Positions 302 through 34,246 are shown, counted from the stretch's first letter. The stretch is DNA of 56,639 bases from Candidatus Jordarchaeia archaeon (GCA_029856435.1 JAHQXB010000176.1:1-56639); one strand, 5' to 3'. The notes: generated by a model not told the origin, from the letters alone. Translations and numbers: made by a program.

Positions 302-694
302 TTGGCAACTGTAGAGGATTCAGACGCCTGTTTTCATTTTGGCGTTGAAAGAATTAAGAAGATTCATAAGGAAGGTCTGGGTGAGGGATGGGAACCTTTT
401 ACAGTGGTGATGTGGCTGGAAGACTTGAAACGAGGGTACTGGTACAAGTTTGAGAAAGACGGTATCCTTGAAGACGCAAAAATAGTGACTGGCGAACCGC
501 CTGAAGCCACAGCTGTTGTCTATATTTCAAGCGACGATTGGGTGGGACACCACACGAAAGAAGTGGATTTGGCTGAAAAATACTTTTCCGGCGCAATGAA
601 GGTTAAGGGCGACGTGGTGGTTTTACAACAGTATCAAACCTATGACTCTTATGAACCCTACTATCCTCCGGGACATCCTAAACACAAAAAATAA
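302..694 (+). CDS. SCP2 sterol/lipid-binding domain protein
   Basis: TTG start after GGAGGT; C-terminal YFSGAMKVKGD matches the SCP2 signature (f..GklKv.Gd); 130 aa. Confidence 0.7.
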   Translation: MATVEDSDACFHFGVERIKKIHKEGLGEGWEPFTVVMWLEDLKRGYWYKFEKDGILEDAKIVTGEPPEATAVVYISSDDWVGHHTKEVDLAEKYFSGAMKVKGDVVVLQQYQTYDSYEPYYPPGHPKHKK

Positions 695-876
695 TTGCAA
701 AGCCATGGAAATCTAGTAATCAAGGGATAAAAGATTTGGGTGTGAACAAAATTCCCCTCCACCCGTTCCACCCTCTTTTTTCCTTTCAACATATTTTTTG
801 ACACTTTTGTAATGTCAGCTGTTTCTAGGTTCCATTTTTTGTGAAATTATTTTCTAAATGTGCTAGATCTTTGGGG

Positions 877-2562
877 TTACACGGTTTGTGGTTTAAATTC
901 TCCAAACACTTCTCTTAAAACCTGGCATATTTCTCCCAGTGTGGCGTAGGCTTTAACTGCTTCTATGAGGGTGGGCATAAGATTACATTTTTCCTGCTTT
1001 GCCTCTTCTCGCAGCTTTTCAAGGAGGCTGTCCACCAGTTTATTGTCGCGTTCCTCTTTTACCTTTTTGATGTTGAAAATCGCCTCCTTTTCAATTTGGG
1101 GGTCTAATCTGTGTAGGGATAGATGAGGCTTTTCGCCGGTTTGAAACTTGTTAACTCCTACTATGATTCTTTCGCCCCTTTCCACTTCCTTCTGGTATTT
1201 GTAAGCCATTGAGGCTATTTCCTTCTGAACGTAACCCTTCTCTATGGCTTTCACCATTCCCCCCATTTCATCAATTTCCCTAATATAGTCCAGTGCCTGC
1301 TCTTCAAGTTTGTCTGTCAAAGTTTCTACAAAGTATGAGCCTCCAAGGGGATCTATGGTGTTGACGACACCGCTTTCGTAGGCTATTATCTGCTGGGTTC
1401 TTAAGGCTATTCTCACAGATTCCTCGGTGGGGAGAGCTAGGGCTTCATCCATGCTGTTTGTGTGTAGGGATTGGGTTCCGCCTAGAATGGCGGCTAATGC
1501 TTGGATTGCTACTCTTATTATGTTGTTTTCTGGCTGTTGGGCGGTTAGGGTTGAGCCCGCGGTTTGGGTGTGGAACCTTAGCTGCAGGGAGTTTTCCTCC
1601 CTAGCTTTAAATCTGTTCCTCATTATTTTGGCCCACATTCTTCGCGCAGCCCTAAATTTTGCTATTTCTTCGAAGAAGTCGTTGTGTGAACTGAAGAAGA
1701 ATGATAGTCTTCCTGCGAATTGGTCTATGTCTAATCCTCTCTCCAGGACCGCGTTTACATAGCATATTCCGTTGGCGAGGGTGAAGGCGATTTCTTGAAC
1801 CGCGTTGGCACCCGCCTCCCTTATATGGTATCCCGAAATGGATATGGGGTTCCATCGGGGCATATTCTTGGTGCAGTATTCTATTACGTCGGTAACCAGC
1901 CGCATAGAGGGCTTTGGTGGGAAAATGTATGTTCCTCGGGCAACGTATTCCTTGAGAATGTCATTTTGAACTGTTCCCGCAAGTTTTGAAATGTCAACCC
2001 CCTGTTTTTGGGCAACCGCAATGTACATGGCTAATATGATTGCTGTGGGAGCGTTGATAGTCATAGAGGTGCTAACCTTGTCCAGCGGTATCCCCTCAAA
2101 AAGAGTCTCCATATCTTTAAGGGTGTCAATTATTACCCCCACTCTTCCAACCTCTCCCCGAGCAAGTGGATGGTCTGAATCGTAGCCCATCTGTGTGGGA
2201 AGGTCAAATGCTACGCTAAGGCCCGTTTGTCCCTGCTCAATAAGGTACTTGAATCTCTTATTGGTTTCCTTAGCTGACGCAAAACCCGCGTATTGCCTCA
2301 TGGTCCAGAGTCTTCCCCTATACATGGTGGGGTAAACGCCCCTAGTGTAGGGATAGTCTCCCGGAAACCCCAATTCTTCAACATATTTTTTCCCGACTCT
2401 GTCCAGCGGAGTATAAAGTCTATTCAAAATTATTCCCGAGGCGGATTGGAATATTTTCTCCCGTTCAGGGTTTTTCTCTAAAAACCTTTTGAGCTTTTCT
2501 TCCTCCCATCTTTTAAGACCTTTTTCTATATCTTGCAATTCCTCGATGTTATCCTTAGCCAT
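877..2562 (-). CDS. mcmA: Methylmalonyl-CoA mutase, substrate-binding (large) subunit, archaeal split type
   Basis: [66 protein letters not shown]; no B12-binding domain; ATG at 2562 has GAGGT 7 nt upstream. Confidence 0.95.
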
Positions 2563-2579
2563 TTTCAAAACCTCTTATT

Positions 2580-2951
2580 CTAAATAGGCTCAAAAATGAT
2601 TCCCATGGATGGTTTTCCCTCTGAGTCTACTGATACTTGTCCATAGGTAGGTTTGACCTTCATTCCTATTTCCACCTTTTCCCTCTCGGAGATCTGTCCA
2701 AATATTCTCACACCATTGTCGAATTCCACTATGCCAAACACGTAGGGCGGTTCACCCTTAAGGGTTTCAGGGAGGGCGTACAGCTTTGTGAAGGTTACAA
2801 CTGTGCCCCTATCTAAGGGTTCAGGGTAAATGTCTTCCAATTCTGAGGCTCTACACTTAATACACCTAATTCTTCCCGGATACTGAATCCTACCACAACT
2901 TTTACATTTAACTCTCCGAAGCTCTTCCATCATTTTATCCTTATTCTCCAT
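2580..2951 (-). CDS. DUF35-family Zn-ribbon/OB-fold protein
   Basis: CKSCG..YPGRIRCIKC rubredoxin-like knuckle followed by OB fold (GTVVTFT, PYVFGIVEFDNGVRIFGQI); ATG 2951 with GGGTGA upstream. Confidence 0.9.
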   Translation of the reverse strand: MENKDKMMEELRRVKCKSCGRIQYPGRIRCIKCRASELEDIYPEPLDRGTVVTFTKLYALPETLKGEPPYVFGIVEFDNGVRIFGQISEREKVEIGMKVKPTYGQVSVDSEGKPSMGIIFEPI

Positions 2952-3191
2952 TTTACCAATCACCCATAAATAGACAGAGAAAACCAATAATTAGAGTTAG
3001 TCATCCACCAATATTAAACTATTTCAATCCTCTCAAAAATAACAAATCCAACTTAATGGACGTAAAAAGTTTCAGGAGCAGGAACTCAAAGCTTCAAAAA
3101 CCGAACCACACACCAATCGCATGAATCAAAAAAACATAGAATGCACCAGAGAATTTTTACGCCCAATAAAAAAGAAAAGGTTGTGGGTTCT

Positions 3192-4142
3192 CTAAATTAA
3201 ACCCACCTTTTTGAAAATGTCTATAAACTCTGAGCTTGGAGGGGCCTTCTTAATCAATTCTTTAAGTTTGGGGCCCAATTCCTCCGGCGTCCAAGTGCCA
3301 TTCTTCTTCGCTTCTCCCACATCATGCCAAGACTGTAGAAGGAAAACAGTACCTCCCACAAGTCTAATTACCCTGCCCGTAATGTCTTTTGCGTCGTCTG
3401 AGGCTAAATAAACTACCAGAGGAGCAAGGTTTTGGGGCCCCAGCGGGTCATACCCAAACTTTTTAATCATCTCCTCGGGAGTACTCATTATGGGCGCTAT
3501 AGAAGGAGTTGCTTCTGTGGTCAACCTTGTCCTAGCTACAGGAACCACAGTATTTGCGGTCACCCCGTACTTCGCCATTTCCTTAGCTACAATATTCGTG
3601 AAGGCTACGATTCCCGCTTTGGCAGCTCCATAGTTGCTCTGACCCGGATTATAGAGCAAACCAGCATCGGAAGCAGTGTTTATTATTCTTCCGGCTACGG
3701 GTTTTCCTTCTTTGGACTGGGCTCTCCAGTAGTTGCAGGCGTGTCTGGTGCAGTTGAAGGTGCCCTTGAGGTGAACCGCTATTACTGCATCAAAATCTTC
3801 TTCTTCCATGTTGAATATCATTTTGTCTCTGAGGATTCCCGCATTGTTAACCAGTATGTCCAATTTGCCAAAGGTGCTGATGGCCTGATCAATTATTCTT
3901 TTTGCTCCCTGAAAGTTGGCTACATTCTCATAGTTGGGAGCAGCTTCTCCTCCCATCTTCTTTATTTCATTTACTACCTCGTCGGCGGGTCCGTGGAACT
4001 CACCTTTTCCATCGTGGCTTCCGCCCATATCGTTAACAATTACCTTTGCCCCATACTTTGCAAGGAGTAAGGCTTCTTCACGGCCTAATCCTCTACCGGC
4101 ACCAGTTACTATAGCCACCTTACCTTCAAGCATCTTTGCCAT
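3192..4142 (-). CDS. SDR oxidoreductase, MFE-2/hydroxyacyl-CoA dehydrogenase-like (paralog 1)
   Basis: TGAGRGLG, VNDMGG, NNAGILRD, YGAAK (YxxxK); ATG 4142 with GGGGTGA upstream. Confidence 0.93.
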   Translation of the reverse strand: MAKMLEGKVAIVTGAGRGLGREEALLLAKYGAKVIVNDMGGSHDGKGEFHGPADEVVNEIKKMGGEAAPNYENVANFQGAKRIIDQAISTFGKLDILVNNAGILRDKMIFNMEEEDFDAVIAVHLKGTFNCTRHACNYWRAQSKEGKPVAGRIINTASDAGLLYNPGQSNYGAAKAGIVAFTNIVAKEMAKYGVTANTVVPVARTRLTTEATPSIAPIMSTPEEMIKKFGYDPLGPQNLAPLVVYLASDDAKDITGRVIRLVGGTVFLLQSWHDVGEAKKNGTWTPEELGPKLKELIKKAPPSSEFIDIFKKVGLI

Positions 4143-4274
4143 CTTCTCACCCCACAAAATGGCTGTCAATTAATCGTTTTAATAAACTCTTTCATAAGCC
4201 TTTCTGTAGCCATAAAATAAATTAATAATTAAACAGGTTATATCAACCCAGCTTGAATTAAGTGTTAGCTAGAT

Positions 4275-5081
4275 TTATTTTCTTGGACGATAGTCGAGAC
4301 TTCTCATGTTTGTTGGGTCTATTTTTTCTCTTATGAGGTTAATTTGGTTTATTGTAGGGGGTTCTGTCTCAGGAATCTTCTCCGGAATTAAGAGGGGGAA
4401 TCCCGTGTTCTCCTTTACTTCATCTAAAGAAATGCCCTTGTGTATAGATTCTAATCTCATTTTGCCACTTTTCTCGTCAAATCCCAATACGCAGAGGTCG
4501 GTGATTACTTTGCATGGGCCTCCCCCGCTAATTTTTAGGTTTTTTCTCCACTTGCCCTCATCTAAGTGTCCTGGACCCGTGATGAAGTCGACCTTTTCGA
4601 CGAAAACTCTGGGCTCATGTCTAGGTACATAAACAAGAAGCCTTCCACAAAGGTGTGCCACGTCACCTATCGCTACACCTCCTGGCAGTCGAACTTTAGG
4701 CTTAAAGTAGTCTCCCACCACGCTATTATTGATATTACCATACTGATCTATTTGACCCGGCCTTATGATTCCAAAGTCAATCTCTTCCCTCTGCCAGAGG
4801 TCGTGAAGGTCTGTTAACTTTATGAGAGCCTCAGCTTTAATGGTTCTAAAAGCAGCGGGGTCAGCCATCACCGCCATATAATTTGTGTAGGGATCAGGAT
4901 TAACCCACATCCCATAAATGCAGACCAGATTCGGCGCATGGGTTACGCGAGCAAGCTGAGTTGCCACTACCCCAATTGGGGTAGCCGCACCTAGATACAT
5001 TTTTTCTCCATCTCTCATCTCTCGAGCCAAACTCACAACCATTAGTTCGTCTATTCCATAATCTTTGGCGTATTCCGACAT
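4275..5081 (-). CDS. Class I CoA-transferase-fold beta subunit (GctB-like) lacking the catalytic Glu
   Basis: LARVTHAPNL, GQIDQYGNIN, RVFVEKVDFITGPG, VITDLCVLGFD, HKGISLDEVKENTGF; PNLVCIYG where active enzymes have P....ExG. Confidence 0.88.
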   Translation of the reverse strand: MSEYAKDYGIDELMVVSLAREMRDGEKMYLGAATPIGVVATQLARVTHAPNLVCIYGMWVNPDPYTNYMAVMADPAAFRTIKAEALIKLTDLHDLWQREEIDFGIIRPGQIDQYGNINNSVVGDYFKPKVRLPGGVAIGDVAHLCGRLLVYVPRHEPRVFVEKVDFITGPGHLDEGKWRKNLKISGGGPCKVITDLCVLGFDEKSGKMRLESIHKGISLDEVKENTGFPLLIPEKIPETEPPTINQINLIREKIDPTNMRSLDYRPRK

Positions 5082-5096
5082 TTTTCATCCTCCCTT

Positions 5097-5939
5097 TCAG
5101 CCCCTTTTTACCTTTTTCAGGTATTCCTCATGGCCTTCAACTGAGTAAATGTACTTATCCAAATACTCTTTGTAAGCTTCAGGTTTACTGGAAGCCATAG
5201 TGTATTCTGTAATGTGGGGCACATCCATAGTATACAGTGGCAGAAGACCGGTGGGATGAGCCCCGTAGGGAGCCTCCACTATGAGGTCAACTTCATATTT
5301 CGGTAGCATTAATCTGGCGTCTTTTCCTGGTTCTCCTTCTACCACCTTCTCCACGGTGACTATGGTTTTTTTAGCCGCTTGGGCGAATGCTACCAGTAAG
5401 TCGGTCATTATCTGGGATTCCACCGCGTAAATGTTTCCAAGGGAGTCACTCTGATAGGCGTGTATTAGCGCTACGTCAAGTTTGGTTGCTGGTACTGCTA
5501 CAGTTTTCTGGTTTGTTATGGGGCAGTCGAAAACTTTAAAGTCAGTATTAATTTTCAGCAGATCCGAACCTAAAAGTGACCTAGTGGGTAGGAAGCTCAC
5601 TCCCATAGCTGCGGCTCTGAGGCCCAACACAAAGGTTAGCTCACTGTACTCTTTGAAACTTATTTCACCACTCTCAACTTTGCTACGGAAGTTTGGAGCA
5701 AATCCCATCATGGGGAAACCAACGTAGGCCGCGCAAATTCTTTTAGAACAACCAGAGCCCACCAGCAGATCTACATCTATATCGCCCATAAGGGAATACA
5801 CAGTTAAATCTTGAATTTTTTGTTTTATGATTTCCCTTACGGCAGCCATAGGTTTATAGACCAGAGATGCACCAGCAATTCCTACAGTGTCTCCCTTTTT
5901 TATTTCACTTACTGCTTTCTGTAAACTCACAATCTTCAT
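5097..5939 (-). CDS. Class I CoA-transferase-fold alpha subunit (GctA/IpdA-like)
   Basis: KPMAAVREII, LRAAAMGVSFLP, DVALIHA..SDSLGN, VEAPYGAHPT; immediately upstream of the beta gene. Confidence 0.9.
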   Translation of the reverse strand: MKIVSLQKAVSEIKKGDTVGIAGASLVYKPMAAVREIIKQKIQDLTVYSLMGDIDVDLLVGSGCSKRICAAYVGFPMMGFAPNFRSKVESGEISFKEYSELTFVLGLRAAAMGVSFLPTRSLLGSDLLKINTDFKVFDCPITNQKTVAVPATKLDVALIHAYQSDSLGNIYAVESQIMTDLLVAFAQAAKKTIVTVEKVVEGEPGKDARLMLPKYEVDLIVEAPYGAHPTGLLPLYTMDVPHITEYTMASSKPEAYKEYLDKYIYSVEGHEEYLKKVKRG

Positions 5940-6493
5940 AATCCGAAACCTCCCTAACTCCTTGGTTAAAGATTAGCTTAAAAAGGCATAAACAAGTCCA
6001 CAGCACTCCTCGCCCAATTTTTTCCAAAAAACACATCATATTTAATACTTGAGAAATAGTTTATCCCTCTAATATTTTTATTGTTAAGGATGAAATTCTA
6101 CCAGAGTTCTAGGCCTCAATTTTCATTACGTATGGTAAATGTCACATGTGTACTCAAGCAATCTTATTTGTAGGAATATGTCTTCGTGGCGGGCTTGAGA
6201 AACCTATTTCACCACGGTTAAACACTAAGTGTAGGAAAGGGAGACCCTAGGGATTTTGGAAGTAGGTCCAAGATCAGGGCATGTAACCAAAAAAACCAGC
6301 AGCAAGGAACATTGTTTAACTAAGGATATAGATTATTCTTTCCCGTTTCTTCTAATGAGGCTTCATAATAACAAGAAGCAGGCTTAAACATTACCTTTTT
6401 TATAATTATGCATAGCCAGAACCACTAAATGTTTCTCCACTGGTGCACGCTTTTTCGGGTGATTTTATTTTTTCAATATATTTTATAAATAAA

Positions 6494-6537
6494 TTGAAAA
6501 TTTTTCAAATTAACAGTGTAAAATTGCAAAAAAATTC
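6494..6537 (+). repeat. AT-rich dispersed intergenic repeat, copy A
   Basis: TTGAAAATTTTTCAAATTAACAGTGTAAAATTGCAAAAAAATTC nearly identical to 36585-36627; inverted relative at about 39453-39520. Confidence 0.65.
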
Positions 6538-6880
6538 AAAATGCGAAAAAAGATATTTCATGCAGAAATTGCTAGAGAGTATCTCCGAATGGGCTTCAAG
6601 TTTCCTTCCAAATGTATTTTGGCCTCCACATTTATTCCCTCTTTTGCCAATAGGAGTCTTCAATAGGGCTTCTTTTCACATTAAAAACATACTTTTTTCA
6701 GAGAACATGGAAAACAAACACGCCCACACTCCAAAATACACTAAAAGCTTTTTAGGCACAAAATTAAATATGATGAGTTACGCAACACATAGTGAGTAAA
6801 ATTTTTATGAATTGAACCAACAATAAAATCCAAATTGGATATGAAGAGTTAATATTCTATTAAAGGGGTGTGGAGTTTAA

Positions 6881-7306
6881 ATGTCAGAAACAAAATCCGA
6901 GTTTGGAGATCTAAAGGAATTCTTGCCTGGAACATTGACTAAACCTTTGAATTCTCAGAGTTTACTAATTGGCTCTAAATGTAAAAACTGTGGAAAAATT
7001 TTCTTTCCGAAAAAGAAACTTTGTACAAATTGTTACACCTGGGACAAAATGGAGGAAACAACCCTGAGCAAAAGGGGAAAGATATTCTCCTGGACTGTTT
7101 CCAGTATGTATGGTCTCCCACCGATTCCCTTTGGATACGTCGACTTACCAGAAGGTATTAGGTTATTCACCCAATTTACAGAATGCGACCCCTGTGAGCA
7201 AAATCTGAAAATAGGAATGGAGGTAGAGATGGTGGTCCAAAAAATGAATGACCAATTCTTCACAAAGGAATTTGTGGGCTACAAATTTAGACCAGTAAAA
7301 AAATAG
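6881..7306 (+). CDS. DUF35-family Zn-ribbon/OB-fold protein (thiolase partner)
   Basis: CKNCG..FFPKKKLCTNC plus OB fold (GKIFSWT, GYVDLPEGIRLF); directly upstream of a thiolase. Confidence 0.92.
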   Translation: MSETKSEFGDLKEFLPGTLTKPLNSQSLLIGSKCKNCGKIFFPKKKLCTNCYTWDKMEETTLSKRGKIFSWTVSSMYGLPPIPFGYVDLPEGIRLFTQFTECDPCEQNLKIGMEVEMVVQKMNDQFFTKEFVGYKFRPVKK

Positions 7307-7321
7307 GGAGGGTAGAGAAAA

Positions 7322-8515
7322 GTGAGAAAGGTTGCTGTTGTTGGGGTAGGAATGACAAAGTTTGGAACCCTTTATGATCAGGATGTGAAGGAATTAACTG
7401 AGGAGGCAGTGTGGAACGCCCTTCAAGACGGGGGAGTTGACCCGAAAGACATACAAGTGGCATACTGTGGCAATGCGGTGCCTGGAGTGGTAAGTAGACA
7501 GGCGGGCATCACCGGCCAAATAGGTTTAATGAGTGTTGGAATAACTGGAATACCCATCACAACTGTTTCCAACGCTTGCTCCAGCAGCACATGCGCCTTC
7601 AGAGAAACCTACTTTGCCATAGCCACCGGCCTTTACGATGTTGGCCTCGCCTTCGGAGTCGAAAAAACAGTAATGAGGAAAGAAGAAGCAACTATGGCTA
7701 CGCTGGCCATAGGCTCCAAATTTCTAAGCTTGGGGGCAGACGGAGAGCTGGAAAACATATATGGTATATCCTTCCCGGGATTTTTTGCCAACGCAGCCCA
7801 GAGGCATATGCACCTTTACGGAACCACCCGAGAGCAGATGGCTAAAGTAGCCGTAAAAAATCATCACAATGCCACTATGAATCCCTATGCCCAATTCCAA
7901 AAGGAGATCACAATCGAAGATGTTTTTAAATCTCGCATGGTTGCTTATCCCCTAACTGTCTATGACTGCTGTCCATTGTCAGACGGAGCCTCAGCTGCAA
8001 TTCTAGTGGGTGAAGAGCTGGCGAAAAAGTACACCGACACCCCTATATGGATCAAAGGTACTGGCCAAGCCTCAGGCGTCTATTCCAATACTGAGGAAGA
8101 TTTGACTAGGTTTTTACCAACTATAATGGCTAGCAGAGAAGCCTATAAACAAGCTAAAATAGAGCCCAAAGATATTGATTTTGCTGAGGTTCACGACTGC
8201 TTCACCATCTCTGAAATCATTCACTACGAGGATCTCGGGTGGTGCAAGAAGGGAGAGGGAGGAAAAATGATAGAGGAGGGAATAACGGAGCTTGGAGGCA
8301 AACTGCCCGTGAATCCGGGAGGTGGACTGAAGGCACGGGGACACCCAGTAGCAGCCACGGGAACAGCGCAAATAGCTGAGTTAGTCTGGCAACTGAGGGG
8401 CGAAGCTGGAAAACGCCAAGTGGATGGAGCTGAAATTGGATTAGCGCATACTCTAGGGGGACTAACCCACGCAGACGTTGCAGTAAGCGCTGTAGTAATT
8501 CTGGGAAGAGAATAA
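7322..8515 (+). CDS. Thiolase, SCP-x/archaeal type, with intact catalytic Cys
   Basis: GMTKFG, NACSSS (nucleophile Cys), EVHDCF, GGLKARGHPVAATG; GTG start after GGAGGGT. Confidence 0.95.
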   Translation: MRKVAVVGVGMTKFGTLYDQDVKELTEEAVWNALQDGGVDPKDIQVAYCGNAVPGVVSRQAGITGQIGLMSVGITGIPITTVSNACSSSTCAFRETYFAIATGLYDVGLAFGVEKTVMRKEEATMATLAIGSKFLSLGADGELENIYGISFPGFFANAAQRHMHLYGTTREQMAKVAVKNHHNATMNPYAQFQKEITIEDVFKSRMVAYPLTVYDCCPLSDGASAAILVGEELAKKYTDTPIWIKGTGQASGVYSNTEEDLTRFLPTIMASREAYKQAKIEPKDIDFAEVHDCFTISEIIHYEDLGWCKKGEGGKMIEEGITELGGKLPVNPGGGLKARGHPVAATGTAQIAELVWQLRGEAGKRQVDGAEIGLAHTLGGLTHADVAVSAVVILGRE

Positions 8516-8571
8516 CGCATCATTCTCCATTTTTGAAATTAGGAATTTCCACAAATTGGGAGAGAGTGGTT

Positions 8572-9606
8572 ATGGTTGAATTAGAAGTGTTTGACAAAAC
8601 AATGTCTATGGAGGAAGCTGTTAAGAAATTTGTGAGAGATGGGGACTTATTGAGTATTGCTAGCACTGGCACTCCTTCCCCATACGCGGCGATTCATGAG
8701 ATTGTCAGACAAAAGAAAAGAAATTTGACTCTTCTACAGGCTGGTTCAGGACAAGAGACTGAGATACTTGTGTGGACCGGATGTGCGAAGAAATTTATAG
8801 CGTCTTATCAGGCGAGGGTAATGGCGGGTGAGAGGGCTTTTGACCGTGGTTTACGTAAGCACAAAGTGGAGGTGGAAGAATTTACAAATTACACGGTCAC
8901 AGCTATGCAGATGGCTGGGGCTTTAGGTCTACCCTGTTTTCCGGCTCCACTTTCTTTAGTGTGCACTGACATCTACCGCAAAAGAACGTTCATGGGTAAT
9001 AATAAGATAGTGGTTATGGATAATCCCTTCAAGGCTGGGGAGAAAATGGCCCTCATCCCCTCGATAGTAGCAGACGTCTCGGTAGTTCACGTTCAGAGAA
9101 TAGATAAGTATGGCAATGCTCAGGCTTGGGGTGGTCTTGCGTCCACTAAGTGGGGGGCGCTCTGCGGGAAAAAAATTATAGTTTCGGCTGAAGAAATGGT
9201 AGATCATGAAGTGGTGAAATTCAGTCCCAACTACACTATTATTCCCAGTTACAAAACAAGTGCAATTGTAATAGAGCCTTGGGGAGCCCATGCTACTGAC
9301 CTTACCGGTTACTATGATTTGGATATGCCATTTGGAATGCTTTATTATATGAGTTCCATTGGAGGGGATGAGAGCTTCCAAGCTTGGTTAGATGAATGGG
9401 TGTATGGCGTATCAAACCGTACAGAGTACTTGAGACACTATTCTGAAAAGTTTGGTCCCAAGGCTCTTGATAGACTTAGGGTGAAACATAGGCCGAGTTC
9501 TGAAGTGAATTATGGGGGAAGTTATCAGTCATACCGTGAAATGTTGGGCATCACTGATGAAATGATGGAAAAAAGCCCGGACTTGTTTGAGATAGAGGTG
9601 GAGTGA
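8572..9606 (+). CDS. Class I CoA-transferase alpha subunit (GctA-like) with C-terminal extension
   Basis: AAIHEIVRQ, MAGALGLPCFP, VHVQRIDKYGN, EPWGAHAT; start placed at ATG 8572. Confidence 0.9.
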   Translation: MVELEVFDKTMSMEEAVKKFVRDGDLLSIASTGTPSPYAAIHEIVRQKKRNLTLLQAGSGQETEILVWTGCAKKFIASYQARVMAGERAFDRGLRKHKVEVEEFTNYTVTAMQMAGALGLPCFPAPLSLVCTDIYRKRTFMGNNKIVVMDNPFKAGEKMALIPSIVADVSVVHVQRIDKYGNAQAWGGLASTKWGALCGKKIIVSAEEMVDHEVVKFSPNYTIIPSYKTSAIVIEPWGAHATDLTGYYDLDMPFGMLYYMSSIGGDESFQAWLDEWVYGVSNRTEYLRHYSEKFGPKALDRLRVKHRPSSEVNYGGSYQSYREMLGITDEMMEKSPDLFEIEVE

Positions 9607-10439
9607 AGAAGATGCCCAGAAAAATTAGGTTAACTTTGGACGAGATTATGTGCTCTGTCGCCTCAAGGGAGATTAGAGACTGGAATGTCGTCATAGTTGG
9701 CCACGGTTATCCTCTTCTTGCAGGCTACTTAGCCAAGAAGACTCACGCACCCCACGCCGTGCTAATTACGGAGTGCGGTTTGGTGGATCCAGATGTTTAC
9801 CGTCCCATGCAGCACCCAAACGATTTCTGCAGCACAAAGGGGGTTTCTATGTGTACTGATATACCTGACTTGTTTGCTTCAAACCTGTTTCGGGGATATG
9901 TTGATGTCGGTTTCCTGTCGGCTGCGGAGGTTGACAAGTATGGGAACATAAACACCTCCTACATTGGAGGGAAACACTTTGCAGGCAGTGGGGGAGCAAA
10001 TGAAATTGCGGGTTATGCCAAGAGAACAATCATTATGCTGAGACATGGAAAATTCGTTGAGGAATGTGAGTACATAACTACTCCGGGATACCTTGAGGGT
10101 TATGATTCACGTTACAAGGCGGGATTGCCGGAAGGGACAGGCCCCTCGATTCTGGTGAGCAGCAAGGGAGTTTTCCGTTTTGATGAGAAGACTAAAGAGA
10201 TGTACTTGGAGTCTTGCCATCCGGGTGTAACTGTGGAAGAGATTCAAAAGGAAATTCCTTGGAAACTTAAGATATCCCCTAACTTGAGGCAGACTTTGCC
10301 ACCCACAGAAGAGGAGCTTCGCATAATGAGGGAGTTTGCTCCAACAATATCACTCGGGCGATCCTTTTACGTGCAAATTATGATGAACTATATGCGAAAA
10401 TTCGTGGAGGACGCCCAAAAGGCAAAGTTGGGGAGCTGA
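9603..10439 (+). CDS. Class I CoA-transferase beta subunit (GctB-like) with catalytic Glu
   Basis: PHAVLITECG (Glu present), GFLSAAEVDKYGNIN, GSGGANEIA, HPGVTVEEIQ; overlaps the alpha stop codon. Confidence 0.92.
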   Translation: MKKMPRKIRLTLDEIMCSVASREIRDWNVVIVGHGYPLLAGYLAKKTHAPHAVLITECGLVDPDVYRPMQHPNDFCSTKGVSMCTDIPDLFASNLFRGYVDVGFLSAAEVDKYGNINTSYIGGKHFAGSGGANEIAGYAKRTIIMLRHGKFVEECEYITTPGYLEGYDSRYKAGLPEGTGPSILVSSKGVFRFDEKTKEMYLESCHPGVTVEEIQKEIPWKLKISPNLRQTLPPTEEELRIMREFAPTISLGRSFYVQIMMNYMRKFVEDAQKAKLGS

Positions 10440-23581: not shown

Positions 23582-24739
23582 TCATCTTTGGAATATGTGC
23601 ACTACAATGTTGTTGCCGAAGCCGCCGAAATTAACTGATAGCCCTGTTTCGCATCCTGGAACCTGGCGTTTTCCAGCCTCCCCTCTCAGCTGCCATGTTA
23701 TTTCAACCGCCTGAGCCACGCCAGTAGCGCCCAGAGGATGACCCCTAGCCTTAAGTCCCCCGCTAGGATTTATGGGCAGTTCTCCATCAAGCCAAGTTTT
23801 CCCCTCCTCAACGGCTTTGGCTCCCTCACCCTTCTTAAAGAAACCCACATCCTCGGATTGAACAATCTCCAATATAGTGAAGGCGTCGTGTAACTCTGCA
23901 AAATCTATGTCCTGCGGTTCGAGCTTAGCCATAGAATATGCCTTCTGTGCGGCCTCCCTTAAAGCTCCCAAAACAGTTGGATCCTCCCGCTCAGCAACCA
24001 TCTGAATATCAGTGGCTTGACCAAAACCCTTAATGTATACGGGGGTATCAGTGTACTCTTTGGCTTTATCCGCCGCGCAGAGAACTAGGGAAGCCGCCCC
24101 ATCACTTACAGGGCAGACATCGAATAGACGTAGTGGTTCTGCAATGATTGGTGAGGCTAACGCCTTTTCTAGGGTTATTTCCTTCTGGAAGTGAGCGTAG
24201 GGATTGTGAGCCCCATTTTTGTGATTTTTAACCGCCACCAATGAGAGCACCTCTCTCTTAACACTATATTTTTTCAAATACAACTGTGCAAGAAGCCCAC
24301 CCAGAGAAGGTAGGGTAACTCCATACTTGTACTCTGCAGTGGGATGAGTTAGTGTCGCAACTGAGGAGCTAACCTTGGGATTGGGAATGGAAGTCATTTT
24401 CTCCACACCCACAACCAAAACGAGGTTAGAGACGCCAGACGCGATAGCTTGGAAGCCCTCTTTTATGGCGGAGCCACCACTCGCCGGGCCATTCTCTATT
24501 TTGTCTGCGGCTGCGGGTAGCAAATTGAGCCTATCTGCAAGCACACTCGCGATACCCGTCATCCTATTGAACTCTCCAGAAAACATGTTGCCCACATAAA
24601 CCGCGTCAAAATCACTCTCAGAAGCATTAGCGTCAGAAATCGCCCTGAGACTAGACTCAACCATAAGATCAGTAAGAGACTTACCCTCAAGCTGCCCAAA
24701 TCGCGTCATACCACAACCAACAATGGCAACACCACGCAT
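23582..24739 (-). CDS. Thiolase-family protein lacking the nucleophilic Cys
   Basis: GMTRFG, ENGPASGG in place of ENAC.SG, ELHDAF, GGLKARGHPLGATG; ATG 24739. Confidence 0.92.
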   Translation of the reverse strand: MRGVAIVGCGMTRFGQLEGKSLTDLMVESSLRAISDANASESDFDAVYVGNMFSGEFNRMTGIASVLADRLNLLPAAADKIENGPASGGSAIKEGFQAIASGVSNLVLVVGVEKMTSIPNPKVSSSVATLTHPTAEYKYGVTLPSLGGLLAQLYLKKYSVKREVLSLVAVKNHKNGAHNPYAHFQKEITLEKALASPIIAEPLRLFDVCPVSDGAASLVLCAADKAKEYTDTPVYIKGFGQATDIQMVAEREDPTVLGALREAAQKAYSMAKLEPQDIDFAELHDAFTILEIVQSEDVGFFKKGEGAKAVEEGKTWLDGELPINPSGGLKARGHPLGATGVAQAVEITWQLRGEAGKRQVPGCETGLSVNFGGFGNNIVVHIFQR

Positions 24740-24897
24740 AAACACAACCCCAAACAAACTAAAATAACCAACATACAAAAGATGAAAGTGTCTGCTTTTT
24801 GAATTTTTAGTCCACTTACTATAAAAGGCTTCTCATAAACAAGAAGGCATCAAAAAATCGGAGGATGTGTTTGGTTTTTAGAACTTCCCTAGCCACT

Positions 24898-28258: not shown

Positions 28259-28912
28259 TTGTCCGAGGAGAAGATCCGAAGGGATATTGAGGAAGCATTG
28301 CTGGAATTTGAAGAGGAAAAGCTGGCAAAAATCCTCAAAGACTCCCTAGATAGGGGTGTTGGTCCCCTGAAACTTATAGATGTGCTAACCGATGTTTTGA
28401 GAGATTTTGGAGATAAATTTGAGAGCGGCGAGTTCTTTCTGCCTCAGCTAATAGCTGCTGGAGACGCGGCTCAGGGCGCAATAAAAGAGGTCTTGGAACC
28501 TGCTCTCAAAAAAAGCGGCGAATCACGAGAACCCATAGGAAAGGTGGTTATTGGCACAGTTTTTGGAGACATACATGACATAGGGAAAAACATTGTGGCC
28601 TCCATGCTCTTCGCAAATGGATTTGAAGTTTACGACTTGGGCAAAGATGTCCAACCAGAAGAATTCGCCAAAAAAGCCAAGGAGCTAAACGCAGACATAG
28701 TGGGAGCCTCCGCCATGCTCACCATGACCATGCAAGAACAGCTTAATGTGGCAAAGGCTCTTGAAAAATATGGAATCCGCGACAAGGTCAAATACATTAT
28801 TGGCGGAGCCATAGTCACCGAGAAGTGGGCGGAGGAGATTGGAGCCGACGGATTTGCCACCGACGCCGTGGAGGCAGTGAAACTAGCCAAAGAGCTTCTA
28901 GGAGTAACATAA
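28259..28912 (+). CDS. Methyltransferase cognate corrinoid protein (MttC/MtbC-like)
   Basis: GDKFESGEFFLPQL cap domain, GDIHDIGKNIV (DxHxxG), SAML, IIGGA. Confidence 0.94.
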   Translation: MSEEKIRRDIEEALLEFEEEKLAKILKDSLDRGVGPLKLIDVLTDVLRDFGDKFESGEFFLPQLIAAGDAAQGAIKEVLEPALKKSGESREPIGKVVIGTVFGDIHDIGKNIVASMLFANGFEVYDLGKDVQPEEFAKKAKELNADIVGASAMLTMTMQEQLNVAKALEKYGIRDKVKYIIGGAIVTEKWAEEIGADGFATDAVEAVKLAKELLGVT

Positions 28913-28925
28913 GGAGGAGGAGGAT

Positions 28926-30419
28926 TTGAAGATTCCAAGATTAGAGGTTTTAAGTAGTGATGAGATTACACAGATCCACAATGCCTCCATGGAGATATTG
29001 GAGGATGTGGGAGTCAAAATAGATGTAGGCGAGGCGCGAGAAATACTGAAGAAGGCGGGAGCGGAAGTAAATGAGGAAAGCCACATGGTGAAAATGCCAG
29101 AGTACATGGTTAAAGAAGCTTTAAATAAGGCTCCCAGTCAATTCATACTCTACGGCCGTGAGGAAAAGTTCAAGCTAAGAGTGGGAGGCGACACACTAAC
29201 CTTCACCTTCTCGCCCACCCCAGTTAAAATTATTGATTCAGAAACCGGAAGGGTCAGGGAAACCACTCTTAAGGACGTGGAGAACAAGTACCGACTGATA
29301 GATGCTCTAAAATACATTAACACTTCCCACACCGACGTTTGGGCCCACGACGTCCCCCTCACCACACTACACGCCTATGAAATATTGACTTGGGCTAAAA
29401 ACACGATAAAGTGTTTTGGAATAGGCCCCTATGGAGTTATGGCTTCCCAAGACGTAATAAATATGGTTTCCATGGTTGCAGGAGGAGAGGAAGAGCTCAT
29501 AAAGAAGCCCCGCATAATCGGCTTCTATAATCCCGTTAGTCCCCTGCAAACTTCGGACATTGTTATGAGGGGAATGATGATTTTTAACCGGTACAAACAG
29601 CCCATGATAATTGCACCCGAAGCCCAAGCGGGAGCCACTGCCCCCTCAACCCTCGCAGGCCTTCTAGTCCAACAAAACGCCGAAATACTCAGCAACCTAG
29701 TGCTCTGCGAGCTTGTTAGTCCGGGAACACCAGTACTCTATGGCACCGTCTCAACAATAACAGATATGCGCACCGGAAACATAGCCCTAGGCTCCATAGA
29801 AACCGGACTAATATATGCTGCCTCTGCTCAACTTGCGAAGTTCTACCGCCTTCCCTCGAGGGCACTGGCGGGAACAAGTGAGTCGATGCTTGTAGACATC
29901 CAAGCGGGATTCGAAAAGGCTCTCACTCTCTTCATGGCGGCTGCCGCCAGAATAAACTACATCACCTGCGCTGGAACCATCGAATCCAGCATAACAACAA
30001 ACATGGAGCTCATAATGATTGACGAGGAACTTATAGGAATGATTAGAAGATCCTTGGAAGGAATAGAAGTAAACGAAAACACCCTAGCCATAGATGTAAT
30101 AAAAGAGGTGGGTGCAGGTGGCTCATACTTAAGCCACAAACACACTCTCAAAAACTTCCAGAAGGAACAGTACATACCTTTCCTAATAGACAGGAGCAAG
30201 AGGGAAGTATGGGAAAAACGCGGCTCAAAAAGCATCATTGACGTTGCGAGGGAAAAATGGCAAAAAATACTGAAGGAACACCAACCAGAACCACTGGATA
30301 AAAGTGTGGAGAAAAAGCTCCTAGACTACCTAGAAATGGTGAAGAAAAGAACCCTAGACGACTACTTTAAAGCTGAAGGAATCGAGAGAAAACCAACTGG
30401 ACTACCCAACCTACCATAA
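28926..30419 (+). CDS. Trimethylamine methyltransferase (MttB) superfamily protein, pyrrolysine-free
   Basis: AGATAPSTLAG.L.QQNAE.L, PGTPVLYG, DMRTG, DIQAGFEK, GSYLSHKHT; no in-frame TAG. Confidence 0.92.
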   Translation: MKIPRLEVLSSDEITQIHNASMEILEDVGVKIDVGEAREILKKAGAEVNEESHMVKMPEYMVKEALNKAPSQFILYGREEKFKLRVGGDTLTFTFSPTPVKIIDSETGRVRETTLKDVENKYRLIDALKYINTSHTDVWAHDVPLTTLHAYEILTWAKNTIKCFGIGPYGVMASQDVINMVSMVAGGEEELIKKPRIIGFYNPVSPLQTSDIVMRGMMIFNRYKQPMIIAPEAQAGATAPSTLAGLLVQQNAEILSNLVLCELVSPGTPVLYGTVSTITDMRTGNIALGSIETGLIYAASAQLAKFYRLPSRALAGTSESMLVDIQAGFEKALTLFMAAAARINYITCAGTIESSITTNMELIMIDEELIGMIRRSLEGIEVNENTLAIDVIKEVGAGGSYLSHKHTLKNFQKEQYIPFLIDRSKREVWEKRGSKSIIDVAREKWQKILKEHQPEPLDKSVEKKLLDYLEMVKKRTLDDYFKAEGIERKPTGLPNLP

Positions 30420-30751: not shown

Positions 30752-31600
30752 GTGGAGAATTATGAAACAATAAAGTATAAGGAATTGGAGGATGGAATCT
30801 CCATTGTCAGTCTAAATCGCCCGGATAAGCTGAATGCCTTCACTATTCAGATGATTGAGGAGCTCCACGACCTTTTTGACAAGTTGGAGTGGGACTTGGA
30901 TGTGCGGGTGCTAATTCTAACCGGTGAGGGGCGAGCGTTCAGTGCTGGAACGGATCTCAACGAATGTGCAAGAATCTACGCCCCCGAAATAATGGAGAAC
31001 TACAAACATATTAAGTACATGGATATTCCAGAAGTGGCCAAAAGGCAATACTATGCCCAGGTGCGAACCTCCCAGCTGGCTTTAAAAATGCGCCAAATCC
31101 CCCAACCCATTATTGCCGCCATAAAGGGTCCCGCGGTAGGCATGGCTTTCGCCCTATCTCTAGCTGCAGATATACGCATCGCAGGGGAGAGCGCCAGGTT
31201 TAGAAATTCAGTGTTTCTCTTGGGACTTTCAGGAGTAGACATAGGCAATAGCTACTTTTTACCAAGATTAGTGGGCTGGTCCCGAGCTGCGGAAATTATT
31301 TACACTGCAAGGTTCGTGGAAGCCCAAGAAGCAGAGAGAATAGGCCTCGTTTCCCGTGTGGTTCCAGATGACAAACTTATGGATGAAGCAATAGCAATGG
31401 CAAAAATTCTCGTAGCAAAAAGTCCCCTAGGTCTAAGACTAACTAAATCCTCCATAAATATAAACTTCAACGCACCCAACCTAGAAACCGCCCTCGCCAT
31501 GGAAAACAGGGCTCAAGTAATATGCATGGGCACCACGGATCCCAAAGAAGGCATCACCGCATTCTTCGAGAAGAGAGAACCCAAATATCCCAGAAGGTAA
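30752..31600 (+). CDS. Crotonase-superfamily enzyme (paralog 1), both canonical Glu absent
   Basis: LNRPDKLNA, AFSAGTDL, PIIAAIKGPA, GLSGVDIG, AERIGLV. Confidence 0.92.
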   Translation: MENYETIKYKELEDGISIVSLNRPDKLNAFTIQMIEELHDLFDKLEWDLDVRVLILTGEGRAFSAGTDLNECARIYAPEIMENYKHIKYMDIPEVAKRQYYAQVRTSQLALKMRQIPQPIIAAIKGPAVGMAFALSLAADIRIAGESARFRNSVFLLGLSGVDIGNSYFLPRLVGWSRAAEIIYTARFVEAQEAERIGLVSRVVPDDKLMDEAIAMAKILVAKSPLGLRLTKSSININFNAPNLETALAMENRAQVICMGTTDPKEGITAFFEKREPKYPRR

Positions 31601-32039
31601 CCCTAAAACCCCAACCAATTTTTTCACAATCCCCAAACATACTTAAAAGTCTCCAAAAACCCTTTTCCAATCAGCCACTACTTATGTCCAATTTTTAATT
31701 AAGAACTCTTACCGAATGATCAGCTGGCAGAAACCGAAGCTCATCACCCCAATTTTCCTCCCCTTGCAAGAAACCTGAACACACAAAAATGGAGATCCAC
31801 TTTTCCAAGGCTCACCCATCTACCTTAGATGCGTTGCTCCTTTAAGGTTTCAACTCACACTCTCATTCAGATGAAGTTAACCCTTATTGAATGTTTTCAA
31901 GGGTGTTCCGCACTTCCTTTTTTGTATCAGGTTTTTTCGAATTAATCCTTTAATTATGGGTTCCTAAAGTTGGAGACTTATCGAAACAGTTTTATCTTTA
32001 AATGACTAGATATGAAACCAAATTAGCTCCTTTGGAGGT

Positions 32040-33224
32040 ATGAAGTTGTCAGTTGATATTATCGATAAATTGAAGGACGATATCGGCCCAGAATACATAC
32101 TCCAAATGTATGATCCCGGCTCTGGTATGAGAGGTGTAATAGTAATTGATACTGCTGCTTTCGGAGTTGCTGCCGGCGGTATCAGAATGCTTCCTGACAT
32201 AACTACTGAGGAAATCTTCCACCTAGCCAGAGCCATGACCTACAAGTTTGCAGCTCTGGATATGCCTGTGGGTGGCGCTAAATCAGGAATATTCGCTGAC
32301 CCTGCTGATCCTAAAAGAGAAAAGATACTTGCCGCCTATGGTAGACAAATCGCCCCATTTTTGAAACAACTCATGTATATTCCTGGTGCGGATATGGGCA
32401 CCTCAGATGAGGATGTAGGCAAAATATACAAGTATGCAGGTATGAGTGAAATGGCTCCCAGCGGTTTGACCCTCAAAGAAAAGGAAGGCATGCCTCTGGA
32501 AGATCACCTGACGGGATATGGGGTGGTCGTAGCTGCCAAGGTCGCCAGCGAACAAATAAAACTCTCTATGAAGGATGCGACTGTAGCTATAGAGGGCTTC
32601 GGCAAGGTTGGAGGAGGAGTGGCACGCTATATGGCTCGTTCGGGAGCCAAAGTGGTAGCATTATCCACAATTGAGGGCGCAATATACAACCCTAACGGCT
32701 TAGATGTAGAGAAAATGTTAACAATGCGAAAGAAGTACGGAGATAAGGTGGTTTTAGAGTACAAGGACGCCAAGCCGATTAAAAGGGAGGAGCTGTTTAC
32801 ACTGCCTGTAGACATACTGGTTCCTGGTGCTAGACCCTACGTGATAAACAAGAAAAACGCGGGTAAAATTAAGGCTAAGCTAATTAGTTCTGGAGCTAAC
32901 ATTCCAGTTACTGATGAGGCTGAGAAAATCCTTTTGGAGAAGGGGATAGTTGTTATTCCAGACTTCATCTCGAACTCGGGAGGCGTCATTGCTGCTACTT
33001 TGGACCGCATGAGTGCTACTGAAGAGCAAGCCTTCAAACTGGTAGAGGAGAAGATAACGGCTTCCGTGGGAAAGGTATTGTCCAAGGCCCTTAAGGAGAA
33101 AAGGGTTCCCACAGAAGTGGCAAAAGAAATGGCAATACAAAAAGTAAAACAAGCAATGAAAAAGAGGCAACAGGTACAAGCACAAGAGTTGGAAAAAATC
33201 ATGAGGGAAAAATTCAAGGCTTAA
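32040..33224 (+). CDS. Glu/Leu/Phe/Val dehydrogenase family protein
   Basis: GGIR, MTYK, GGAKSG, GADMGT, LTGYGV, EGFGKVG, PDFISNSGGV; start could be TTG 32046. Confidence 0.92.
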   Translation: MKLSVDIIDKLKDDIGPEYILQMYDPGSGMRGVIVIDTAAFGVAAGGIRMLPDITTEEIFHLARAMTYKFAALDMPVGGAKSGIFADPADPKREKILAAYGRQIAPFLKQLMYIPGADMGTSDEDVGKIYKYAGMSEMAPSGLTLKEKEGMPLEDHLTGYGVVVAAKVASEQIKLSMKDATVAIEGFGKVGGGVARYMARSGAKVVALSTIEGAIYNPNGLDVEKMLTMRKKYGDKVVLEYKDAKPIKREELFTLPVDILVPGARPYVINKKNAGKIKAKLISSGANIPVTDEAEKILLEKGIVVIPDFISNSGGVIAATLDRMSATEEQAFKLVEEKITASVGKVLSKALKEKRVPTEVAKEMAIQKVKQAMKKRQQVQAQELEKIMREKFKA

Positions 33225-33394
33225 AAATGACTCCCATTTCACATTTTTCTTTAACGAAGTTTTGAAGGCTTTTGTCTTTTTTCTGAAATGTTTAACAATT
33301 TTTGTGTTTTTACTCTTTTTTATTTAGGCGTGCCCACATTTTTATAAATGTTTAATTGAATTGGATTAAACAAATTTGTTTTGGAGGTTTCTAA

Positions 33395-34246
33395 ATGGTG
33401 GATTATAAGACTATTAGGTATCAGGAATTGGAGGAAGGTATAGGTATATTAACCCTGAATAGGCCGGAGAGGCTCAATGCGCTTAATTTTGAGATGATTG
33501 AGGAACTCCACGACTTATTGGGCGAGTTAGAGTGGAATATGGATTGTCGAGTGCTAATAATTACTGGGGAAGGACGAGCGTTCTGTTCCGGAACGGATCT
33601 TAAGGAAGCTTCCCTATTTGAGTCCTTAGATAAGCTTCCAGAAAAATATTCAAAGCTGAAGTATTTGAATGTGGGGGACGAAGCCAAGAGGAAGATGTAT
33701 GGCCAGAGAAGAATTGCGGATGTCATACTTCAGCTGAGAAGAATTAATCAACCAGTAATTGCCGCAGTGAGGGGACCCGCAACTGGAGGAGGCTTCGCCC
33801 TAGCTATGGCTGCAGATATTAGGATAGCGGGTGAAAGTGCAAGATTCAACAACGCCTTCATAAACATTGGCATGTCCGGAACTGACGTTGGAAGTAGCTA
33901 TTTTCTACCCAGACTAATCGGATTATCACGAGCCGCAGAAATACTATACACTGGAAGATTCGTAGATGCACGGGAAGCTGAGAGAATAGGGTTCGTCTCC
34001 AGAGTGGTTCCCGACGACAAGTTGATGGAAGCCACCTTGGAACTAGCGCGAGAAATGCTCAAAAAAACACCCCTCGGACTGCGCTTAACCAAGGAAGCGA
34101 TAAACATGAATATAGATGCTCCAAGCCTTGAAGCAGCCCTATATCTTGAAAACCGGAACCAAGTAGTTTGTATGAGTACTAAAGACGTTTTTGAAGCCCT
34201 AATGGCCTTTATGGAGAAAAGAAGCCCAAAATATGGGAAGCGCTAA
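33395..34246 (+). CDS. Crotonase-superfamily enzyme (paralog 2), both canonical Glu absent
   Basis: LNRPERLNA, AFCSGTDL, GPATGGGFALAMAADIR, GMSGTDVG. Confidence 0.92.
   Translation: MVDYKTIRYQELEEGIGILTLNRPERLNALNFEMIEELHDLLGELEWNMDCRVLIITGEGRAFCSGTDLKEASLFESLDKLPEKYSKLKYLNVGDEAKRKMYGQRRIADVILQLRRINQPVIAAVRGPATGGGFALAMAADIRIAGESARFNNAFINIGMSGTDVGSSYFLPRLIGLSRAAEILYTGRFVDAREAERIGFVSRVVPDDKLMEATLELAREMLKKTPLGLRLTKEAINMNIDAPSLEAALYLENRNQVVCMSTKDVFEALMAFMEKRSPKYGKR

Follow-up and report, generated by a model that had tools for sequence, protein, structure and literature searches.

Three solved systems built on the two-subunit fold of family I coenzyme A (CoA)-transferases frame the genes studied here: IpdAB of Rhodococcus jostii RHA1 and Mycobacterium tuberculosis (PDB 6CO6, 6CO9, 6COJ, 6CON), the COCHEA-CoA ring hydrolase; GctAB of Acidaminococcus fermentans (PDB 1POI); and AibAB (PDB 5MZW-5N03), the 3-methylglutaconyl-CoA decarboxylase of Myxococcus xanthus, a relative of glutaconate CoA-transferase in which the catalytic beta glutamate is lost and a glutaconyl-type CoA ester undergoes a lyase reaction (PMC7756340). 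We analysed a related pair, P1, encoded in a stretch of 56,639 nucleotides (the window) from Candidatus Jordarchaeia archaeon (GCA_029856435.1 JAHQXB010000176.1:1-56639), whose closest named protein matches are in Asgard archaea. No known organisms are more closely related to eukaryotes than these archaea, whose energy metabolism has been inferred almost wholly from annotation, with genes annotated as glutaconate CoA-transferase counted as evidence for a hydroxyglutarate pathway. A first-pass annotation had read positions 302-34246 as one acyl-CoA catabolic cluster of altered enzymes resembling the IpdABC steroid-ring cluster. We find that P1 has lost the transferase glutamate and that the 34 kb are a mosaic, the core of which may, tentatively, be a fermentation module. 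The main value of this result is corrective: the 34 kb do not form one unit, and the locus is no steroid cluster.

The loss in P1 beta is a deletion, seen in pairwise alignment (NLVCIYGMW against IIVESGL of GctB) and confirmed in an alignment of 47 alpha/beta pairs taken from the loci searched, from paralogues within the genome and from three plasmid records. Gly/Tyr stand at the former Glu column, with a Cys three residues upstream. In the alpha subunit, Glu105 of IpdA, located by the single-residue difference between PDB 6CO6 (REMDE) and the E105A variant 6COJ (REMDA), falls on E100 of P1 alpha (KEYSE motif), which is invariant in 10/10 orthologues; GctA has Gln and AibA Gly in that column. 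A second pair of the window, P2, keeps the beta Glu and has Asn at the alpha position, so that both the Glu-less and the normal CoA-transferase of the first-pass annotation stand.

The two changes go together across the alignment. All six Glu-keeping betas are paired with an alpha bearing Asn or His at the Glu105 column, and most Glu-less betas with an alpha bearing Glu; the exceptions are Ile in the C177 clade, Gly in the L013/L017 clade and Cys in a Nocardioides pair. The GxQID motif of many Glu-less clades has also acquired an Arg-Pro. When 46 beta subunits were placed in a maximum-likelihood tree, those with the Glu lay on one side of a branch (support 97/90), and P1 fell in a clade of eight rows (99/98) whose sister is a clade from another Asgard family. 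Homologues of P1 alpha number ~2600 at E ≤ 1e-10 (58-90% identity in Asgard archaea, near 40% in bacteria and Bathyarchaeota), and P1 beta has matches in 265 of the 400 Asgard genomes searched. Judged by sequence, P1 is thus one orthologous group among a large number of pairs, few of them studied, whose Glu has moved from beta to alpha; this wider group is common in Asgard archaea and many bacteria. Since 36 of 41 pairs from Asgard or related metagenome DNA lack the transferase Glu, they probably catalyse something else.

Placement of P1 among the three solved systems rests on pairwise scores against PDB chains: P1 scored 124/104 bits against GctA/B, 111/103 against IpdA, 60/49 against IpdB and 109/60 against AibA/B. 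By this measure P1 is no closer to IpdAB or AibAB than to GctAB. The proposed likeness to the IpdABC cluster therefore holds in part, at the two diagnostic positions of P1 and in the adjoining NMO-family, short-chain dehydrogenase/reductase (SDR), ligase and thiolase genes, and gives way where scores are concerned, P1 being nearer GctAB and no steroid cut-off being reached.

We next consider the surroundings of P1. Ten acyl-CoA families account for 127 genes genome-wide (including 24 crotonases, 24 thiolase-fold proteins, 16 ligases, 13 acyl-CoA dehydrogenases, 10 NMO-family proteins and 9 CoA-transferase pairs), and the 34-kb span holds 15 genes of these families where 1.2 are expected from the genome-wide density (12x), making it the densest stretch of the genome; the next richest has eight. 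Gene order was compared, as DNA and protein, with five other genomes of the genus and a metagenome contig (L072). A core of ~16 kb (877-18395) recurs only in very close relatives, namely genome G121 and L072, and in L072 the 13 genes from the mutase to the oxidoreductase follow one another in unchanged order with 82-91% protein identity; the plus-strand genes of the core are separated by at most 170 bp and are likewise in the same order in L072. Elsewhere in the genus the parts are shuffled or absent. G119 has the SCP2-like gene, mutase and DUF35a on one contig, while on a second, which runs from the NMO gene to the right, an IS110 transposase and a metallo-beta-lactamase lie upstream of that gene at the junction; the segment SDR1, P1, DUF35b, Thl1, P2 and ligase was not found in that genome. 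G118 joins mutase-DUF35a, through an SDR fragment, straight to the 2-hydroxyacid dehydrogenase. In the complete genome G117, mutase-DUF35a, an SDR, the Cys-less thiolase and DUF2284-ACT-PaaK lie near one another, and the locus has no P1, P2, Thl1, ligase or oxidoreductase. A repeat of ~105 bp, present in ~105 copies in this genome and many times in others of the genus, brackets SDR2 and occurs again at 56252-56363. The 34 kb are a real but mosaic concentration of acyl-CoA genes and not the single coherent pathway first proposed, and the core is an accessory unit in a subset of species. Given this rearrangement, gene linkage does not tie the crotonases, Cys-less thiolase and acyl-CoA dehydrogenases to the P1 core.

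Nor are altered enzymes a hallmark of the span. Its Cys-less thiolase, Thl2, reads ENGPASGG against EAACASGG in a normal archaeal thiolase, and its best PDB match, 4YZO, likewise lacks the Cys; in both crotonases Ala/Phe-type residues replace the two canonical Glu, and both proteins resemble PDB 5E0N and 3SLL, of the same layout. Across the genome, the Cys is missing in about half of 22 aligned thiolase-fold paralogues, one or both Glu in more than half of the crotonases, and the beta Glu in at least four other CoA-transferase pairs, so the theme is genome-wide and not peculiar to these 34 kb. Several Cys-less thiolase-fold paralogues form tandem pairs adjoining DUF35, crotonase and CoA-transferase-fold genes (for example C5:53367-55671, C2:14688-16593, C79:9149-11439 and C157:12956-15286).

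Outside the genus, eight loci of the P1 clade were available (P1 alpha identity 60-68%). Directly upstream of P1 alpha stands a family III CoA-transferase in five of the eight and a two-domain nitroreductase in the other three, and an SCP2 protein lies within two genes of P1 in 5/8. All three loci long enough to show one (L073, L074, L076) carry an HGD-D-family gene. At L073 and L074 an orthologous N-like subunit adjoins P1. L076 repeats the divergent arrangement of DUF35b-Thl1 and P1 seen in the window, and further holds SCP2, nitroreductase, a GlcD/CCG pair and a D-2-hydroxyacid dehydrogenase, the last divergently paired with two HGD-D subunits that are followed by two ATPases. This four-gene set (L076:10962-15126) lies ~5 kb from P1; its HGD-D subunits (378 and 427 aa) match BzdN/O in length, with similar scores for BzdN/O and for HadC/HadB, below all cut-offs, and its second ATPase passes the NCBIfam equivalog cut-off for BzdQ (392.9 vs 380.2). 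The best NCBIfam models for the family III CoA-transferases are dicarboxylate CoA-transferases, all below cut-off; the proteins might instead be alpha-methylacyl-CoA racemases. Altogether, the conserved neighbours of P1 are consistent with the anaerobic fermentation of acids. No neighbour family of the window recurred beside the Glu-less pairs of other Asgard clades.

A family III CoA-transferase also follows such a pair on two alphaproteobacterial plasmids (Shinella CP132317.1 and Azospirillum NZ_CP032326.1, Glu loss having been checked in Shinella), and the combination of a lyase-like pair with a real transferase is thus recurrent. The plasmid genes form a conserved operon that also encodes an acetolactate-synthase-like thiamine pyrophosphate enzyme and dihydroxyacetone kinase DhaK/L, with genes for a LacI regulator and a sugar ABC transporter alongside. 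The Nocardioides pair mentioned above (alpha Cys; sp. JS614, pNOCA01 137598-139339) is accompanied by an SDR and an ADP-forming CoA ligase and sits on an ethene-assimilation plasmid, between coenzyme M biosynthesis genes and alkene monooxygenase/EtnE genes. In the genome studied here, the stretch G000:C174:9893-14462 holds the only family III CoA-transferase, 54% identical to that beside P1 orthologues, with an NMO paralogue and then an ADP-forming synthetase behind it and a nitroreductase-like gene adjoining them, a smaller echo of the plus-strand operon of the window.

How could the core work? It appears to consist of two divergent operons, one on the minus strand (P1 alpha, P1 beta, SDR1, DUF35a and methylmalonyl-CoA mutase) and one on the plus strand (DUF35b, Thl1, P2 alpha/beta, the ligase, a FabK-like reductase, the D-2-hydroxyacid dehydrogenase, the indolepyruvate oxidoreductase and the ADP-forming synthetase). 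In our preferred reading, to which we give a probability of roughly 45%, the core is a module that ferments amino-acid-derived 2-oxo and 2-hydroxy acids anaerobically via CoA esters, with P1 as a lyase on an enoyl-CoA. Going by the functions of the families and by their neighbours, around an observed frame of residue pattern, gene order and gene presence or absence, an oxidative branch would convert the 2-oxo acid to an acyl-CoA (oxidoreductase) and then to the acid with gain of ATP (synthetase). In a reductive branch, the dehydrogenase would form the (R)-2-hydroxy acid, P2 would activate it to the 2-hydroxyacyl-CoA, and a dehydratase encoded elsewhere in the genome would yield the 2-enoyl-CoA, for example glutaconyl-CoA from glutamate. 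Because P1 keeps the CoA-binding fold, has lost the transferase Glu and has gained the alpha Glu, it is predicted to act as a lyase rather than a transferase, either decarboxylating a glutaconyl-type ester as AibAB does or adding water to the enoyl-CoA as IpdAB does. SDR1 and thiolase/DUF35b would carry the product to acetyl-CoA, and the FabK-like enzyme would reduce enoyl-CoA as an electron sink. This reading agrees with published predictions for Freyarchaeia, to which beta-oxidation and an incomplete hydroxyglutarate pathway have been assigned (PMC11291895).

Observations on the rest of the genome are in keeping with this scheme. In a genome that is 97.8% complete, no match to PF01039 (Carboxyl_trans) or PF03977 (OAD_beta) was found, which leaves it with neither a biotin-dependent glutaconyl-CoA decarboxylase nor an acetyl-CoA or propionyl-CoA carboxylase of the usual kinds. 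With no carboxylase to feed the mutase, the earlier argument that propionyl-CoA from ring breakdown is handled by the mutase of the window fails as stated. Other families of the hydroxyglutarate pathway are present (glutamate dehydrogenase, 2-hydroxyacid dehydrogenase, glutaconate CoA-transferase, dehydratase and activator), none at an equivalog cut-off, and two HGD-D sets occur in the genome, both laid out like a dehydratase, with one activase apiece. As to the mutase itself, DUF35 proteins are known as thiolase partners, and throughout the genus a DUF35 gene directly precedes the mutase large subunit; in G117 the two are fused in frame in a 697-aa open reading frame (ORF; L083:6846-8939). 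Of the three mutase paralogues, that of the window alone carries the canonical Tyr/Arg signature, Phe/Gln marking isobutyryl-CoA-mutase-like enzymes. The other two (C79:13017-14666 and 35824-37434) have Phe/Gln in one case (C79a) and neither signature in the other.

Several observations weigh against the fermentation scheme. The dehydratase (on contig C67) is not adjacent to P1 in this genome, and it is conserved in members of the genus that lack P1 and P2; co-variation of P1 with this dehydratase within the genus was tested and none was seen. Hydrophobic or aromatic substrates, and not glutaconyl-CoA, are what the recurrent SCP2 proteins and the indolepyruvate oxidoreductase suggest. The residue pattern lends a decarboxylase role no direct backing, since the decisive alpha residue of AibA is Gly and not Glu, and the Arg gained in P1 beta would be suited to holding a carboxylate in place and not to driving it out. 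Given the rearrangement seen inside the genus, part of the adjacency may be accidental. The sample of outside loci is also thin, since the eight come from two or three lineages and seven of them bear contig names of one metagenome series (Ga031530x-Ga031531x). It is doubtful that the P1 clade is an uncharacterised enzyme class that in Asgard archaea acts directly behind ATP-driven radical enzymes of the dehydratase/benzoyl-CoA-reductase family, either as a biotin-free glutaconyl-CoA decarboxylase closing the gap in their hydroxyglutarate pathway or in place of Oah as the ring-opening hydrolase of an archaeal dearomatisation route. Were P1 a biotin-free decarboxylase or an enoyl-CoA hydratase/hydrolase, the carbon and energy balances predicted for these archaea would change.

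From the alicyclic, terpenoid or steroid ring-opening pathway first proposed, we retain the opening of an alicyclic or dearomatised CoA ester, in which SDR1 would make the ring ketone and thiolase/DUF35 shorten the product. The Bzd-like set near P1 at L076, with one ATPase above the BzdQ cut-off, the N-like subunit beside P1 at L073 and L074 and the move of the Glu from beta to the IpdA Glu105 column of alpha all point this way, as does a cluster of Sterolibacterium denitrificans that combines IpdAB-like, DUF35, SCPx-thiolase and IpdC-like genes (PMC6678751). Yet a BzdQ-type ATPase, which passes its cut-off in 56 of 400 Asgard genomes, is found in none of the six genomes of the genus, and a four-subunit Bzd-type set was met at the distant L076 only, not in this genome or its five relatives. 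The N/O-like subunits, moreover, score equally as HadC/HadB and pass no cut-off, the D-2-hydroxyacid dehydrogenase paired with them at L076 fits a dehydratase, and where Asgard families do possess BzdQ, it has no Glu-less pair beside it; ring opening is for these reasons quite unlikely. Catabolism of the C/D rings of steroids or hopanoids (HIP type), as in the actinobacterial KstR2 regulon, is highly improbable. Its likeness to the core stays at the level of families (IpdAB-like residues, an NMO-family enzyme, SDR, ligase and thiolase), whereas no steroid-specific NCBIfam threshold is reached (251 against 657 for the FadD3 family by the ligase, 289 against 750 for CasG, and 187-194 against 400 for EchA19 by the crotonases 18 kb away). 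P1 is no nearer IpdAB than GctAB or AibAB, the core has neither crotonase nor acyl-CoA dehydrogenase, synteny does not reach beyond near relatives, P1 elsewhere has fermentation-type enzymes as its conserved partners, and the carboxylase step between propionyl-CoA and the mutase is missing.

Beta-oxidation or its reversal, acting on ordinary, methyl-branched or isoprenoid-derived acids in a peroxisome-like set-up, would give P1 the role of the missing hydratase/dehydratase: the core has no crotonase or MaoC gene, leaving the hydratase step otherwise unfilled, and SDR1 has as best solved relative the (3R)-hydroxyacyl-CoA dehydrogenase of yeast MFE-2 (PDB 2ET6, 321 bits). Thl1 is of the SCPx/archaeal type, SCP2 proteins recur near P1, and FabK-like enzymes, to which the NMO-family protein is closest (PDB 7L00, 175 bits), are enoyl reductases. 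However, 24 crotonase genes are at hand elsewhere in the genome, no carboxyltransferase would pass propionyl-CoA to the mutase, and P1 orthologues neighbour CoA-transferases and dehydratase-type enzymes instead of beta-oxidation genes, so we hold this reading to be unlikely. The rearrangements in G117, G118 and G119, the 105-copy repeat flanking SDR2 and the sheer number of such genes (127) could also mean that there is no common pathway, expanded paralogues having piled up in a recombination-prone, repeat-rich region where each small unit (mutase-DUF35, the P1 pair, thiolase-DUF35, P2, oxidoreductase-synthetase) works alone. That is improbable in view of a density 12 times the expectation and maximal for the genome, of the 13-gene order kept in L072 at 82-91% protein identity, and of the DUF35b-thiolase unit that again diverges from P1 in the distant L076.

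All gene families listed by the first-pass annotation were recovered in Pfam and NCBIfam scans of all long ORFs (Table 1), with alignments bearing out the Cys-less thiolase and the two Glu-less crotonases, and the two acyl-CoA dehydrogenases indeed lie further right; the second DUF35 gene (DUF35a) had gone unmentioned. The gene order, whose recurrence in other archaeal genomes it had proposed as a check, is kept for the core in L072 and G121, both very close relatives, and is shuffled in the rest of the genus. Genes other than the acyl-CoA set fill about half of the 34-kb span. They comprise the D-2-hydroxyacid dehydrogenase, the indolepyruvate oxidoreductase and the ADP-forming synthetase of the core and, rightwards from SDR2, a P-type ATPase; then, beyond Thl2, DUF2284, ACT and PaaK-like ligase genes, followed by those for a corrinoid protein and an MttB-like methyltransferase; and finally glutamate dehydrogenase, which stands between the two crotonases. 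The corrinoid and MttB-family genes (28259-30419) are unrelated to the acyl-CoA genes around them; the MttB frame is open, with no in-frame stop, and so probably encodes a non-pyrrolysine member. The small SCP2-like protein is conserved at 62-95% across the genus and shows no more than weak similarity (22% identity, E 7e-5) to those encoded near P1 orthologues. As listed, the beta ORF of the oxidoreductase overlaps alpha, and its real start is probably later; Thl2 likely starts at the Met at residue 14. A 118-aa ORF at 6443-6799 has no family match, is absent from L072 and is probably not a gene.

Table 1. Features annotated in the window, with the basis of each assignment (bit scores against model cut-offs where given).
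Feature	Position	Strand	Basis
SCP2-like small protein	302-694	+	Pfam SCP2, 21.0 bits vs cut-off 21.3 (borderline)
Methylmalonyl-CoA mutase large subunit, canonical type	877-2568	-	Pfam, 788 bits
DUF35a (zinc ribbon + OB fold), mutase partner	2580-2987	-	Pfam
SDR1, MFE-2-type (3R)-hydroxyacyl-CoA dehydrogenase	3192-4169	-	NF005861, 382.5 bits vs cut-off 373
P1 beta, CoA-transferase fold without catalytic Glu, gained Arg-Pro (IIRPGQID)	4275-5081	-	Alignments
P1 alpha, CoA-transferase fold, Glu100 at IpdA Glu105 position	5097-5939	-	Alignments
DUF35b	6881-7306	+	Pfam; BbsA-like 69 bits, far under cut-off
Thl1, SCPx/archaeal-type thiolase, nucleophile Cys present (SNACSSS)	7322-8515	+	Pfam, NCBIfam, alignment
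P2 alpha, glutaconate-CoA-transferase-like	8533-9606	+	Best PDB match 1POI_A, E 4.7e-40
P2 beta, catalytic Glu kept (ITECGL)	9603-10439	+	Alignment
AMP-forming acyl-CoA ligase, generic	10469-12172	+	No equivalog cut-off reached
NMO-family, FabK-like enoyl-thioester reductase	12268-13281	+	Pfam NMO, 180 bits
D-isomer-specific 2-hydroxyacid dehydrogenase	13453-14424	+	Pfam, NCBIfam
Indolepyruvate:ferredoxin oxidoreductase alpha	14442-16361	+	TIGR03336, 621.6 bits vs cut-off 650.9
Indolepyruvate:ferredoxin oxidoreductase beta	16306-16956	+	Pfam POR
ADP-forming acyl-CoA synthetase, alpha-type	16953-18395	+	Pfam, NCBIfam
~105-bp repeat copy, left flank of SDR2	18492-18594		Repeat search
SDR2, paralogue of SDR1	19470-20468	-	NF005861, 374 bits vs cut-off 373
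~105-bp repeat copy, right flank of SDR2	20509-20611		Repeat search
Thl2, thiolase fold without nucleophile Cys (ENGPASGG)	23582-24778	-	Alignment
Crotonase without both canonical Glu	30752-31600	+	Alignment
Glutamate/leucine-type amino-acid dehydrogenase	32040-33224	+	Pfam
Crotonase without both canonical Glu	33395-34246	+	Alignment
Acyl-CoA dehydrogenases (two)	39775-41334; 49587-50837		Pfam

Set beside the known systems, P1 shares with IpdAB the two-subunit fold, the loss of the beta Glu and the alpha Glu at the Glu105 column, together with a thiolase, an SDR and an NMO-family enzyme nearby. It differs in scoring below its GctAB values against both IpdAB subunits and in the Arg-Pro of its beta GxQID motif, which IpdB lacks. 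The hosts differ as well, this one being an anaerobic archaeon with no KstR2-type gene set (echA20, fadA6, fadE30-33, fadD3, ipdC and ipdF) around P1, in which P1 is partnered by a CoA-transferase, SCP2 and a dehydratase-type enzyme. A parallel in gene content, from an anaerobe, is the Sterolibacterium denitrificans cluster SEDNCHOL_10317-10325 (PMC6678751): compared by gene name, the same five families lie side by side, directly adjacent to a crotonase and acyl-CoA dehydrogenases that the core here does not have. The core also recalls the eukaryotic peroxisomal MFE-2/SCPx system in bringing an MFE-2-type SDR, an SCPx-type thiolase and an SCP2-fold protein into one neighbourhood, although the proteins are separate, there is no hydratase-2 (MaoC) domain and the SCP2 match is borderline.

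AibAB shares with P1 only the lost beta Glu. At the alpha column it has Gly where P1 has Glu, AibB has Cys56 at the former Glu position itself (PMC7756340) while the Cys of P1 beta lies upstream of it, and the scan of proteins from the window showed neither an HMG-CoA synthase nor an AibC-type reductase. For P1 and P2 (the latter at 141/130 bits) alike, the closest solved relative is GctAB. Its mechanism is impossible for P1, which lacks the catalytic Glu, and possible for P2. In the hydroxyglutarate operon of Acidaminococcus fermentans the transferase genes adjoin those of 2-hydroxyglutaryl-CoA dehydratase, and P1 orthologues at L073, L074 and L076 likewise lie near HGD-D genes; unlike that pathway, this genome does not have the biotin-dependent decarboxylase that acts after the dehydratase. 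If P1 is indeed a biotin-free decarboxylase or an enoyl-CoA hydratase/hydrolase, it would add a third reaction type for this fold beside those of IpdAB and AibAB.

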